This document shows positions 57,400 to 60,342 of a stretch of 64,000 nt of DNA, piece after piece; the first letter of the stretch is position 1, and each line of letters starts with the position of its first letter. Under the pieces are notes generated by a model. That model was given only the letters and a program-made list of their open reading frames with translations. It ran no database searches and was not told the origin of the DNA. The position numbers were made by a program, and so were the translations under genes. This DNA comes from Gallionella sp. (GTDB lineage Bacteria; Pseudomonadota; Gammaproteobacteria; Burkholderiales; Gallionellaceae): assembly GCA_028687575.1 (NCBI GenBank), contig JAQTZW010000015.1, positions 106 through 64,105 of the forward strand, read 5' to 3'.

Positions 57400-60342
57400 T
57401 TATACGGTATAAAGGGCGTGCTGTTCCACGCCATCCTTCAGTGCAAAATTAGCGCGATCAATAATCTCGCGGCGCATCTGCGGACTCAATGTAACGAAGT
57501 AAGCGGAATAGCCGGCCACCCGTATCATCAAGTCCTTGAAAGGCGTCAAAGACGCCTGCTCGGCCTCACCGGCTCCCGGTTGCATGGCCGCCGTGGCAGC
57601 CTTGTCTGCCGCCACCAGATCAGCGATGGACGATACGCACATCTGCACCAGCACACCGTTGTTCTCGGCAAAGGTTTTCATGTAGCGGGCGAACAACTCG
57701 GTATCGGCCTCGCGCTGTTCGACGCCACGCGTGGTCAGACTCAGGTTGTAGGTATAGCCATTCTTGACGGCATCGCTGTCCACGGCGGCGACCGACAGGA
57801 TGTGATCCAGCGCCATCACCGGCGAACCGTCGCGCTTGACGATGCCGGGGCAAGGCGTGATGCCGGAGGCGAATGCCCGCCCGGCCTGACGGGCATTCGG
57901 CGTTGCCTGGGTCAGCATGCCGAATCCGGCATGGTTGGTCATGGACCAGTAACCCGAAAGGTAGCGTCCACCGCGATGGGTGCGATACTGGTAGAACACC
58001 TCGTGGATCATGCGAGTCAGCAGCTTGGTGTATTTGACCGCCAGACTGTTGTCGAAAACACCGTCATTGGCGACCCCCGCCCCGTAATGCGCGGTACGCG
58101 CGATGGCGGCACGAATCTCGCGCAGACGGGCCGTGCTCAACACCGGCAATTCTTCGGCATCATCCGGATGCAACCAGTAATGTGCTTTTTTCAGAAAATC
58201 CTGCCAGACATTGCCCTCGGCAACCTGCTTGGCAGGATCGAAATCGGCGTGCATTGCGGCCAGCAACTCCGACGCACTGACTTTACCGCCGAACACTAGT
58301 TCATCGAGAATGCAGAAACTGTCTATCACATCGGCCAGACCGATGATGGCCACCCCGGAAGAGTTGTATTTTGCCCCGCCCGCTGCCACATCCCGGAACT
58401 TCGCGCCACGCCCCCCCGGCAGATTGGTCGGCCCGGTGAACAGCCCAGACAGAAAGGGTGAAGCACGGTCACGCGCCATGAAACGCCCAAGATAATTGTT
58501 GTTCTGCACCGCATGGCGCGCCATTTGATCGAGTTGCAAGCGAAATGCCGTGATGAACTCATCCATATCCTTCATCTGCACCAGCGGCGCAGTGGTATAT
58601 GCCGGCTGATCGTTGAATAAATTGGGTGATTTGGCCCCCGTCCCGTCGGAACGGTGCTTGCCGCCGAATAATGCCAGTTCCAGCACCGCTGGCAGCACGA
58701 ACAATGTCGAGCCCGAGTTGCCGTAATGCTTGCCGGGCGCATTCTGCTCGATGCAGCCAATCGAAGCGTAATCGCAGGCATCAGCCATCGCTTCTTCACT
58801 GCTGATGCCTGCGTGCTCAGCATAGTAGGCCGCCATGCTGCGGATCACCGGCATGTCACCGTGCAGCGCGGGGGTGGCGCGGGTCTGGATGTTCACCTGG
58901 CAGACGCGCTTCAGGTATGGATCCATCACCTCGGCAGGCAAGGGTTGGCCTTGCGCGTCACGATGGTGTACCTCGGCATGATAGCGGGCATGGACGTTCG
59001 GATCGCGGATACTGAGCAACTCTGTGGCCTTGAGGATGATGTAGGTCATGTCGTTGACCGCATCCACCACCTGCCCGTTTTCGTACCGGGTGCCGCCCAC
59101 CGTCAGCGCCTGATTCGATCCGCTACCGGCGAACAACGTCTCCGAACCGCTCGTTGACAGCGGCACATGGTCGGAACAGCGCAGAAAGAAGTGGCAAACC
59201 AATTCAACAGCGTGCTTTACATAGGCATCGCGCGCCGCATCATCGACCTGCGCCTGCCATTCCTTCAGGTAATAAGGATTGAGCAACTGATCCATACGCC
59301 CCAACGACAGGCCGAAATTGGTATTTTCCTGCAATAGCAGGTGATAGCAGATCCAGATTGCCGCCAGTGCCTCCTGTAAAGTCTCGGCGGGCTGGGCGGG
59401 GACATTTCTGCATATCGCTGCCAGTTTCGCGTTACCTGCCTGTTCGGCGGCCTCTGCCAAATGCCGGGCATACAAAATCGCCCCATCAAAAACTTCAACC
59501 ACACCTTCCAGGAACTGCCGCTGCTGCGGCGTGGCGGCTGCGCCAGATGTCAGGTCGCTGCGCATTTGCGCGCTGAGCGCATCCAGCCCAAACTTCAACA
59601 ATCTATCCCAGTCAGGAACGGTGTGTGAAACACAGGTGGATTTATCGGACAGATAAAACGCCACACGCTCCATCAACTCCTGGCATTTCGGCGTCTCACC
59701 CGCCTGTTTGCGTAGCGGCGGATCAATCGAAAGACCGTGCACGGTATCAAGACTCGAAAACTCACCGGTGTCGTAGGCCGCCGCACGCGCTGCTTCCGGC
59801 ACAGGAAGCTGTTTATCCAGCCAAAACGGGAAGATTTCCTTGTTTAGCCGTTCGGCCACTTCGGGTTTGATTGCAAAAGGGTTCTGTGAGCGAGTAGTGA
59901 CGGATTTCAGTTCCGGCCAGATGCAGTAACCGATGGTGTCCATGTAGACCACCGGGCCGACGAAGCTGGTAGTGGTTTCACCGGGCATCAGGTCGGTATC
60001 GCGCACCAAAGGTGTTTTGTGTCCAAATACATGGCGTATCGCCTTGGCACGACGCACGGCAGGCGGTAATTTCTGCGCCTCGGGTGTGCGCAGATACTCG
60101 GTCATTAAACGCGGCAATTCATCACAAATCTCGGGAATAAAAGCGGGATCGAACAATTTCTGCCGCCATGCCTTCACCACAGGAAAATCCTCCAGAACCA
60201 GACTGCTTAAAGCTAAATCCTTGATTGACAGAACTCTACCGAAATCGGCATTGGGGATAGGATATAGGCCGGTCGTGGCTGGCGTAGTGCCGCCGCCCTG
60301 CAGATTGACCCGGATGGCTGCGGTATGGCTAAACTTATTCAT
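57400..60342 (-). CDS. Glycyl radical enzyme of unassigned class (not PFL)
   Basis: RVAGYSAYF glycyl loop; a single Cys in SIGCIEQ; LGRMDQ, AVNDMTY, ATPNAR; about 980 aa from ATG 60342. Confidence 0.95.
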   Translation of the reverse strand: MNKFSHTAAIRVNLQGGGTTPATTGLYPIPNADFGRVLSIKDLALSSLVLEDFPVVKAWRQKLFDPAFIPEICDELPRLMTEYLRTPEAQKLPPAVRRAKAIRHVFGHKTPLVRDTDLMPGETTTSFVGPVVYMDTIGYCIWPELKSVTTRSQNPFAIKPEVAERLNKEIFPFWLDKQLPVPEAARAAAYDTGEFSSLDTVHGLSIDPPLRKQAGETPKCQELMERVAFYLSDKSTCVSHTVPDWDRLLKFGLDALSAQMRSDLTSGAAATPQQRQFLEGVVEVFDGAILYARHLAEAAEQAGNAKLAAICRNVPAQPAETLQEALAAIWICYHLLLQENTNFGLSLGRMDQLLNPYYLKEWQAQVDDAARDAYVKHAVELVCHFFLRCSDHVPLSTSGSETLFAGSGSNQALTVGGTRYENGQVVDAVNDMTYIILKATELLSIRDPNVHARYHAEVHHRDAQGQPLPAEVMDPYLKRVCQVNIQTRATPALHGDMPVIRSMAAYYAEHAGISSEEAMADACDYASIGCIEQNAPGKHYGNSGSTLFVLPAVLELALFGGKHRSDGTGAKSPNLFNDQPAYTTAPLVQMKDMDEFITAFRLQLDQMARHAVQNNNYLGRFMARDRASPFLSGLFTGPTNLPGGRGAKFRDVAAGGAKYNSSGVAIIGLADVIDSFCILDELVFGGKVSASELLAAMHADFDPAKQVAEGNVWQDFLKKAHYWLHPDDAEELPVLSTARLREIRAAIARTAHYGAGVANDGVFDNSLAVKYTKLLTRMIHEVFYQYRTHRGGRYLSGYWSMTNHAGFGMLTQATPNARQAGRAFASGITPCPGIVKRDGSPVMALDHILSVAAVDSDAVKNGYTYNLSLTTRGVEQREADTELFARYMKTFAENNGVLVQMCVSSIADLVAADKAATAAMQPGAGEAEQASLTPFKDLMIRVAGYSAYFVTLSPQMRREIIDRANFALKDGVEQHALYTV

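Follow-up and report, generated by a model that had tools for sequence, protein, structure and literature searches.

What does a glycyl radical enzyme (GRE) do in Gallionella, a member of a bacterial family presumed to be aerobic or microaerophilic, and on which substrate does it act? The question is raised by a gene in a 64,000-nucleotide stretch of Gallionella sp. DNA (assembly GCA_028687575.1, contig JAQTZW010000015.1, positions 106 to 64,105; hereafter the window), which a preliminary description made from the sequence alone had presented as a GRE of about 980 amino acids with a GCIE thiyl loop, several unusual insertions and a new substrate pocket. Our analysis places the gene in a widespread GRE family that is uncharacterised by the literature we found, and in which the catalytic subunit is paired with a small protein predicted to have the sterol carrier protein 2 (SCP2) fold. 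We consider it somewhat probable that this is a new family of the CXE type, performing eliminase or isomerase chemistry on a hydrophobic or amphipathic alcohol.

The catalytic subunit is encoded on the reverse strand at 57400-60342. The open reading frame itself runs over 57400-60444 and holds 1014 open codons counted from a TTG. The start was placed at the ATG at 60342 because a ribosome-binding site, AGGGGA, lies at the right spacing about 8 nt upstream and because homologues align from residue 1, their alignments in the database search spanning residues 1-980 of the resulting 980-residue product. Pfam recognises both the PFL-like domain (E 2e-92) and Gly_radical (26.5 bits against a cut-off of 22.2). 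The AlphaFold2 model has a predicted local distance difference test score (pLDDT) of 89.1 and a predicted template modelling score of 0.91, and its top Foldseek matches are all GREs, namely 1,2-propanediol and glycerol dehydratases, PFL2 of Archaeoglobus fulgidus, CutC, YbiW/PflD and HypD. These matches are about equal, with template modelling (TM) scores of 0.84-0.90 on the target and about 22% identity. The protein combines an RVxG[FWY] Gly loop, a catalytic Cys in a PFL-type barrel and a cognate radical S-adenosylmethionine (SAM) activase, the features of the GRE superfamily, with the Cys-x-Glu (GCIE) on the Cys loop that characterises the CXE type. It is the sole PFL-like gene of its 2.9-Mb, 99.97%-complete genome. 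By sequence and model, the gene is predicted to encode an intact, functional and oxygen-sensitive GRE, and the length and motifs given in the preliminary description stand, with GCIE at residues 529-532 and RVAGY at 941-945.

Conservation of the catalytic residues was assessed in an alignment of 72 sequences, comprising 40 family members and 32 members of the nearest (sister) clade, whose proteins are about 37% identical and have about 850 residues, or about 1000 with a C-terminal extension. The Cys loop G529-C530-I531-E532 (58747-58758, reverse strand) carries the CXE motif, with the predicted thiyl radical Cys and general-base Glu identified by sequence, conservation and alignment to glycerol dehydratase (GD). 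C530 and E532 occur in all 40 family members; in the sister clade E532 is again invariant and C530 is present in 31/32 sequences. The Gly loop, R941-V-A-G944-Y945 (57508-57522, reverse strand), lies within the stretch RVAGYSAYF (residues 941-949) and contains the predicted glycyl radical site. R941, V942, G944 and Y945 do not vary in either clade (G944 is present in 72/72 sequences), and at position 943 the family has Ala where the sister clade has Ser. Equally invariant (72/72) is His240 (59623-59625, reverse strand), which a HMMER alignment to 1r8w equates with GD His164, the residue proposed to protonate the leaving group. All GRE 1,2-eliminases and isomerases have the CXE motif, whose Glu is hydrogen-bonded to the substrate hydroxyl, and in GD it is His164 that protonates the leaving hydroxyl (PMC13450708); the conserved Glu of GREs deprotonates the substrate OH (PMC6453916). 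Since Cys-x-Glu and the His164 equivalent match this description of eliminases and isomerases, we assign the enzyme to CXE-type chemistry.

The substrate pocket is a different matter. SDKSTCVSHT, QENTN, LFAGSGSNQ, HYGNSGS and YWSMTNH had been picked out as segments that may line the active site and that match no recognised class. All five align to pocket positions of GD and CutC. Pocket residues were placed by alignment to GD (1r8w) and CutC, and CutC residues carry what we take to be the Desulfovibrio alaskensis numbering, anchored on C489/E491. These two anchor residues agree with a June 2026 review of GREs (PMC13450708). In the HMMER alignments C530/E532 correspond to GD C433/E435, H240 to GD H164 (CutC D216), F343/G344 to GD H281/S282, S407 to GD Y336, N410 to GD Y339 and CutC F395, S543 to CutC T502, G544 to GD D447, L547 to CutC Y506 and W799 to GD Y640. 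Read from these alignments, the catalytic set of His, Cys-x-Glu and Gly is kept and the specificity residues are new: N340, N342, G344, S407, S409, N410, Q411, H539, S543 and G544 are unusually small and polar, and beside them stand W799, M801, T802 and H804. These specificity residues are unlike those of every characterised class, and the bound head group would therefore be new.

These substitutions bear directly on the simplest alternative, that the protein is an ordinary small-diol or amino-alcohol dehydratase of the GD, propanediol dehydratase or CutC kind, with decorative loops and unrelated neighbours. Propanediol and glycerol dehydratases are its top structural matches and the His, Cys and Glu are conserved, but among GD H164, S282, Y339, D447 and Y640 only H164 is kept, the remainder being replaced by G344, N410, G544 and W799. 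The CutC residues D216, F395, T502 and Y506 are likewise replaced, by H240, N410, S543 and L547. The broad PFL2-3 subfamily model TIGR01774 gives 327 bits, below its cut-off of 678. Furthermore, the conserved neighbourhood contains no microcompartment, aldehyde dehydrogenase, alcohol dehydrogenase or transporter genes, which argues against a catabolic small-diol pathway, and the gene for the partner protein described below is kept across phyla, with fusions to the GRE in relatives. For these reasons we regard an ordinary dehydratase as improbable.

Comparison with other characterised classes leads to the same result. The NCBIfam equivalog models for CutC, HpsG, HpfG, PflD, HypD, IAD, HPAD and PFL give 28-201 bits against cut-offs of 994-1150, with 201 bits for CutC (TIGR04394; cut-off 1050), 193 for PflD/YbiW (cut-off 1109), 144 for HypD, 103 for IAD, 58 for HPAD and 28 for PFL. 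For the C-S lyases IslA, IseG and HpsG, NF048011 gives 201 bits against 1000. GRE C-S lyases bind the sulfonate through an Arg-Gln-Arg triad (PMC13450708; PMC6453916), and this triad is absent here, with no Arg or Gln in residues 232-246 and no Arg in 796-808, the triad positions being taken by analogy. With all equivalog scores far below their cut-offs and the GD and CutC specificity residues replaced, the pocket segments indeed match no known class among those compared, and neither these features nor an SCP2-type partner is recorded for any class in the June 2026 review (PMC13450708).

The proposal of a new substrate pocket is thus supported against the classes compared, although the pocket is not special to this gene, being common to the family, the sister clade and some 25 neighbouring clusters at 50% identity. 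In the sister clade the motifs K-x-x-C-[VI]-S-H-T-[VI]-P-D, E-N-x-N-x-G-L-S, L-F-x-G-[ST]-G-S-N-Q-A-x-T, G-C-[IV]-E and G-Y-W-[ST]-M-T-N-H-A-G-F-G, together with Y540, show little or no variation. Of the nearest 98 full-length representatives of 50%-identity clusters, roughly the first 25 retain K234, H240, S409, N/D410, Q411, W799, M801 and H804, whereas more distant representatives have D544 and Y799, the residues of GD at the aligned positions (D447 and Y640). The pocket signature is common to the SCP2-linked clusters, and the D544/Y799 type belongs to more distant relatives. As a separate observation, by the MAFFT alignment three distant relatives (P0140, P0197 and P0252) would carry Ala or Thr where the glycyl residue is expected, and by the same alignment P0140 would also lack Cys-x-Glu. 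The pattern is reminiscent of aminoacyl radical enzymes reportedly described in 2024.

Searches of PDB sequences raise a further alternative, a hydrocarbon-activating enzyme resembling the X-succinate synthases, which would receive an alkane or alkyl chain from the SCP2 protein. The best match is 2f3o (E 1e-54), which has an xNQAxTxGG segment in common with our GRE and for which glycerol dehydratase and MASS are the two functions under debate (PMC13450708), and an SCP2 partner would fit a hydrocarbon. However, the eliminases match far more strongly (E 1e-45) than BSS (E 6e-13) and MASS (E 3e-17), and neither the His nor the Glu of the CXE motif varies. The enzyme is accompanied by no Fe-S small subunit of the HiPIP-like or rubredoxin-like kind, the partner having a single invariant Cys, and neither fumarate nor beta-oxidation genes occur in the conserved neighbourhood. 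Hydrocarbon activation accordingly strikes us as very improbable.

A second feature of the family is the partner protein, which is encoded on the reverse strand at 56751-57380, beginning 19 nt after the GRE stop. Its 209 residues start with MHAGFPQ at 57380, a start that is preceded by a GGGAG ribosome-binding site and conserved in 16 homologues; the listed open reading frame, which reaches 57434, is over-extended. In the AlphaFold2 model (pLDDT 75.7) the protein has an extra N-terminal four-helix segment, and its 35 best Foldseek matches in the PDB are all of the SCP2 fold, comprising UbiJ-SCP2, alkylsulfatase C-terminal domains and sterol carrier proteins. The best of these, UbiJ-SCP2 6h6p, is a weak match (E 2.9e-3, TM 0.57 on the target). 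Separately, a segment of the partner, GGxRYYQGxFLIRT...FCPxP, bears a weak local resemblance to the EVE protein 2eve (E 0.067), and two sister-clade GREs of 1070 residues (P0325 and P0351) carry the EVE domain PF01878 in the precomputed Pfam list.

The genomic association of the two proteins is consistent. In each family locus that reaches far enough, the partner gene separates GRE and activase, and in the sister clade a homologue of 139-163 residues is found at the same place or fused to the GRE C-terminus in 7/7 contexts. The partner is related to the separate and fused sister domains by pairwise E values of 3e-8 and 9e-7 and by an hhalign probability of 92% over the C-terminal 57 columns. 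Two of the fused C-terminal domains match Pfam SCP2 just below threshold with nearly the whole model covered, and all four of the neighbouring clusters with N-terminal extensions of about 200 residues match SCP2 or Alkyl_sulf_C, again sub-threshold, at E 0.003-0.08; sub-threshold matches of this kind are therefore found in six fused proteins, two at the C-terminus and four at the N-terminus. Because the SCP2-like module occurs as a separate protein, fused N-terminally and fused C-terminally, these three arrangements provide strong sequence evidence for a functional pair. Small subunits of GREs are known only in HPAD, BSS and MASS and are all HiPIP-like or rubredoxin-like (PMC13450708). The partner, with its one invariant Cys, would for this reason be a new kind of GRE accessory component.

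Taken together, the polar head-group pocket and the lipid-carrier module lead us, with moderate confidence, to an amphipathic substrate, probably an alcohol of lipid-like or isoprenoid-like character that carries a beta leaving group. In the mechanism we propose, the activase would place the radical on G944 and C530 would become the thiyl radical, which would abstract hydrogen from the carbinol carbon of the substrate while E532 deprotonates its hydroxyl. The hetero-atom group on the adjacent carbon would then leave, helped by H240, and the product radical would regain hydrogen from C530. The SCP2-fold partner may deliver or hold the hydrophobic tail. Hopanoid side chains were considered as a substrate of this kind, but squalene-hopene cyclase (TIGR01507) was not found in the 99.97%-complete host genome, which excludes a hopanoid substrate for the host organism, nor was it found in 4/5 other GRE-bearing genomes.

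The family is large and discrete. A database search with the GRE as query matched 577 proteins. The best 120 of these 577 are 65-84% identical to it, are 949-1029 residues long except for one truncated entry and, where named, are called 'pyruvate formate lyase family protein' or 'formate acetyltransferase'. Over all relatives listed, identities span 62-84% and lengths 950-1030 residues. In a library of representatives at 50% identity the family forms one entry at 1554 bits; with the protein after it at 468 bits, it stands as a discrete family. Loci were found in Gallionella, Nitrosomonadales, Crenothrix, Methylobacter/Methylococcales, Nitrosomonas, Chromatiaceae, Ectothiorhodospiraceae, Nitrospirota and Magnetococcales, and Methylomonas strains have annotated orthologues, one of them 69% identical to the GRE. 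Of the genomes of the host's family 3/121 carry the GRE, as do 2/151 sampled genomes of the host's order. Such patchy occurrence, together with high identity across phyla, suggests an accessory trait that would have spread horizontally. Our full-text literature searches returned no paper on this GRE family, on DUF6765 (a neighbouring gene family described below) or on a GRE-SCP2 pairing, and none that ties a GRE to the carrier taxa.

The unusual insertions noted in the preliminary description are real, since all three named segments are gapped in HMMER alignments to A. fulgidus PFL2 (2f3o), GD (1r8w) and CutC, but they occur beyond this one gene. They are present in each of the 40 family members aligned, and we found no description of the family to which they are common. 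In the 72-sequence alignment the sister clade lacks residues 5-38, 198-212, 364-369, 463-475, 505-513, 571-574, 641-647, 705-740, 756-763, 837-842 and 917-932. Each of these segments has an occupancy of 0.96-1.00 within the family, indicating that the inserts are family-wide and no accident of one gene. Together the family-specific inserts amount to about 130 residues. The N-terminal extension, residues 5-38 (60229-60330), has a column identity of 0.46, against a mean of 0.77 for the whole GRE within the family, and residues 1-23 are modelled with pLDDT below 50. The insert at residues 198-212 (59707-59751) has an occupancy of 1.00 and a column identity of 0.75. Residues 459-475 (58918-58968), HHRDAQGQPLPAEVMDP, begin with the named segment HHRDAQGQPLPAEV (459-472) and form a block modelled with high confidence (pLDDT 91-96; column identity 0.68). 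The insert at residues 705-740 (58123-58230) is helical and contains the named segment AEGNVWQDFLKKAHYWLHPDDAEEL (708-732); it is poorly conserved (column identity 0.41) and modelled with low confidence (pLDDT 54-67). Finally, the Ala-rich insert at residues 910-933 (57544-57615) lies in the glycyl radical domain just ahead of the Gly loop and is modelled as helices 906-920 and 926-935 (pLDDT about 89-94; column identity 0.70). All of these are read on the reverse strand, and the last three are gapped against the PDB GREs as well as the sister clade. The inserts are probably surface elaborations maintained throughout the family and may serve as contact sites for partner proteins.

Downstream of the partner gene, the third gene of the operon encodes a GRE-activating radical SAM enzyme of 307 residues (55831-56754, reverse strand), which passes the TIGR02494 cut-off of 174 bits with a score of 250 and has a CX3CX2C motif with two ferredoxin-like Cys clusters. 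Its ATG overlaps the stop of the partner gene (ATGA). By this layout, in which GRE, SCP2-fold partner and activase follow one another on the reverse strand, the activase is predicted to be dedicated to the GRE and translationally coupled within its operon. Between the convergent activase and DUF6765 genes a consensus scan found a GC-rich hairpin at 55797-55824, with an 11-pair stem containing 9 G-C pairs; it is likely a terminator and could be bidirectional. An FNR-type anaerobic promoter was considered and rejected: the candidate site, 102 nt upstream, has two mismatches and is not conserved in 17 related loci, and a window-wide scan allowing one mismatch gave one unrelated site, no more than chance.

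Two further genes recur near the operon, to which both are convergent in the window. The first encodes an 804-residue protein of no known family (52270-54684, forward strand) that adjoins the GRE in 13/20 family loci. It has two homologous halves, each ending in ...DELV[QE]I..G..LGQLIY...GYFL[ML], and very many of its residues are invariant across phyla. Profile searches of Pfam and the PDB gave no match, and a suggested resemblance to a doubled GXWXG/DUF4334 domain was dropped when PF14231 and PF14232 found no match, even in a search of the one genome. The protein has 459 database homologues, of which the best 120 are unnamed or called 'hypothetical protein' and have no Pfam domain. A 574-residue homologue (E 1e-42) is present in a sister-clade GRE cluster, and a further homologue in another (L033); the 452- and 441-residue proteins of sister clusters, considered as possible homologues, are Metallophos-like instead. 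The second gene encodes a DUF6765 protein of 354 residues (54725-55789, forward strand; PF20551, E 5e-108), found in 9/20 family loci. It has many invariant His and Asp residues and is possibly a metal-dependent hydrolase. A PDB profile search gave no match and hence no support for a Zn phospholipase C/P1 nuclease fold.

The orientations of these two genes vary among the 20 family loci. In several loci from Chromatiaceae, Nitrospirota and gammaproteobacteria the 804-residue protein gene, GRE, partner and activase are co-directional, and one of them (L009) adds DUF6765. An obligatory five-gene module can be dismissed, as among the 121 genomes of the host's family 3 carry the GRE, 2 the 804-residue protein and 15 DUF6765, and the sets overlap only partly. 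Metallophos-type phosphoesterases occur in 4/7 sister contexts (L028, L029, L033 and L034), where the GRE family has DUF6765; this may represent a non-homologous replacement of a hydrolase step. The interval from ComEC to DUF4149 is a variable region. The islet is flanked by ComEC/Rec2 (49642-52071, forward strand; Pfam, NCBIfam) and by a large PAS/GGDEF/EAL signalling protein (61035-63986, reverse strand; domains read from the translation), and a DUF4149 membrane protein (60534-61001) is divergent from the GRE in Gallionellaceae loci only.

How well does an amphipathic substrate hold up against the evidence as a whole? The main rival is an isomerase or eliminase of the YbiW/PflD kind acting on a soluble phosphorylated sugar or polyol, the SCP2-fold protein being structural or regulatory. 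GRE isomerases too keep the CXE motif (PMC13450708), Asn, Gln, Ser, His and Thr line the pocket, the structures of YbiW and PflD match well (TM about 0.87-0.90 on the target), and phosphoesterase-type genes recur, as DUF6765 here and as Metallophos-like proteins in the sister contexts mentioned above. However, the PflD equivalog reaches only 193 of the 1109 bits of its cut-off, the conserved neighbourhood includes no sugar kinase, aldolase or transporter, and it would be hard to explain, for a soluble substrate, why an SCP2-like module has been fused repeatedly and independently to one or the other end of the GRE. We consider a sugar or polyol substrate unlikely on balance. Several points nevertheless weigh against the reading we prefer, that of CXE-type chemistry on an amphipathic alcohol. 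The SCP2 scores are weak (Foldseek E 2.9e-3, TM 0.57, pLDDT 75.7 and Pfam below threshold), and the partner's own sequence has no Pfam match and no PDB sequence match. The SCP2 fold is no proof of lipid binding, and the partner could be a structural or regulatory subunit. The pocket was assigned by alignment, and a pocket so rich in polar residues would equally suit a soluble sugar or polyol phosphate. In addition, one genome of the same genus (L025) has the 804-residue protein and DUF6765 with no GRE match at E <= 1e-100, and another (L026, L027) has the GRE operon about 20 kb from ComEC-DUF6765 and lacks the gene for the 804-residue protein.

A bolder version of the amphipathic-alcohol reading can be formulated, which we offer as a tentative and rather doubtful idea. 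The enzyme would be the first GRE to act on a membrane-type lipid or isoprenoid, presented by the SCP2-fold subunit for radical cleavage or dehydration of its head group. Together with the 804-residue protein and the phosphoesterase, it would form an oxygen-independent pathway of lipid remodelling in bacteria of the oxic-anoxic interface, by which we mean iron oxidisers, methanotrophs, nitrifiers and purple sulfur bacteria. More generally, these GRE clusters form a large, conserved set with its own active-site signature and are systematically coupled or fused to an SCP2-type module. This points to a substrate class that has yet to be explored and to a GRE subunit of a new type. The occurrence of the family in presumed aerobes and microaerophiles (Gallionellaceae, Methylomonas and Nitrosomonas) is also of interest, as the GRE may be the sign of an anaerobic capability so far overlooked in these biogeochemically important bacteria. 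Given the orthologues in Methylomonas, whose strains should be cultivable, the question looks open to experiment.

Among known systems, the closest in structure are the B12-independent glycerol dehydratase of Clostridium butyricum (1R8W) and the GRE 1,2-propanediol dehydratases (5I2A, 9RCO), which have the same barrel (Foldseek E about 1e-46, TM 0.84-0.89 on the target) and with which our GRE has the Gly loop, Cys-x-Glu, the His164 equivalent and a ferredoxin-domain activase in common. In contrast to these enzymes, it is only about 22% identical, 130-200 residues longer through its family-specific inserts, below the TIGR01774 cut-off and outside any microcompartment context; it has G, G, N and W at the diol-binding S282, D447, Y339 and Y640, and is accompanied by the SCP2-fold partner. 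CutC (5FAU, 5A0U) has the same fold and CXE motif, and S543 of our GRE stands at its T502; the two differ in that H240, N410 and L547 replace D216, F395 and Y506, and in the TIGR04394 score of 201 bits against 1050. PFL2 (AF1449) of A. fulgidus (2F3O), the best PDB sequence match, has GCVE and xNQAxTxGG in common with our GRE but comprises 776 residues, is without the inserts and has CYPMTTN opposite YWSMTNH, and its own function is debated (PMC13450708).

The partner protein likewise has counterparts in known systems. In HPAD, BSS and MASS a small protein is similarly encoded with the catalytic subunit and activase; those subunits, however, are HiPIP-like or rubredoxin-like iron proteins (PMC13450708), whereas the partner is of the SCP2 type and has one invariant Cys. 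Characterised PFL-like GREs all act on a small soluble metabolite or a hydrocarbon (PMC13450708). The best structural matches of the partner are UbiJ/UbiT and the C-terminal SCP2 domains of the alkylsulfatases SdsA1/PisA1, from which it differs in having no detectable sequence similarity and in its extra N-terminal four-helix segment. We know of no GRE that uses an SCP2-domain carrier. Outside the GREs, UbiJ/UbiT in ubiquinone synthesis and SdsA1/PisA1 provide a precedent for an SCP2 module that presents a hydrophobic substrate to an enzyme.

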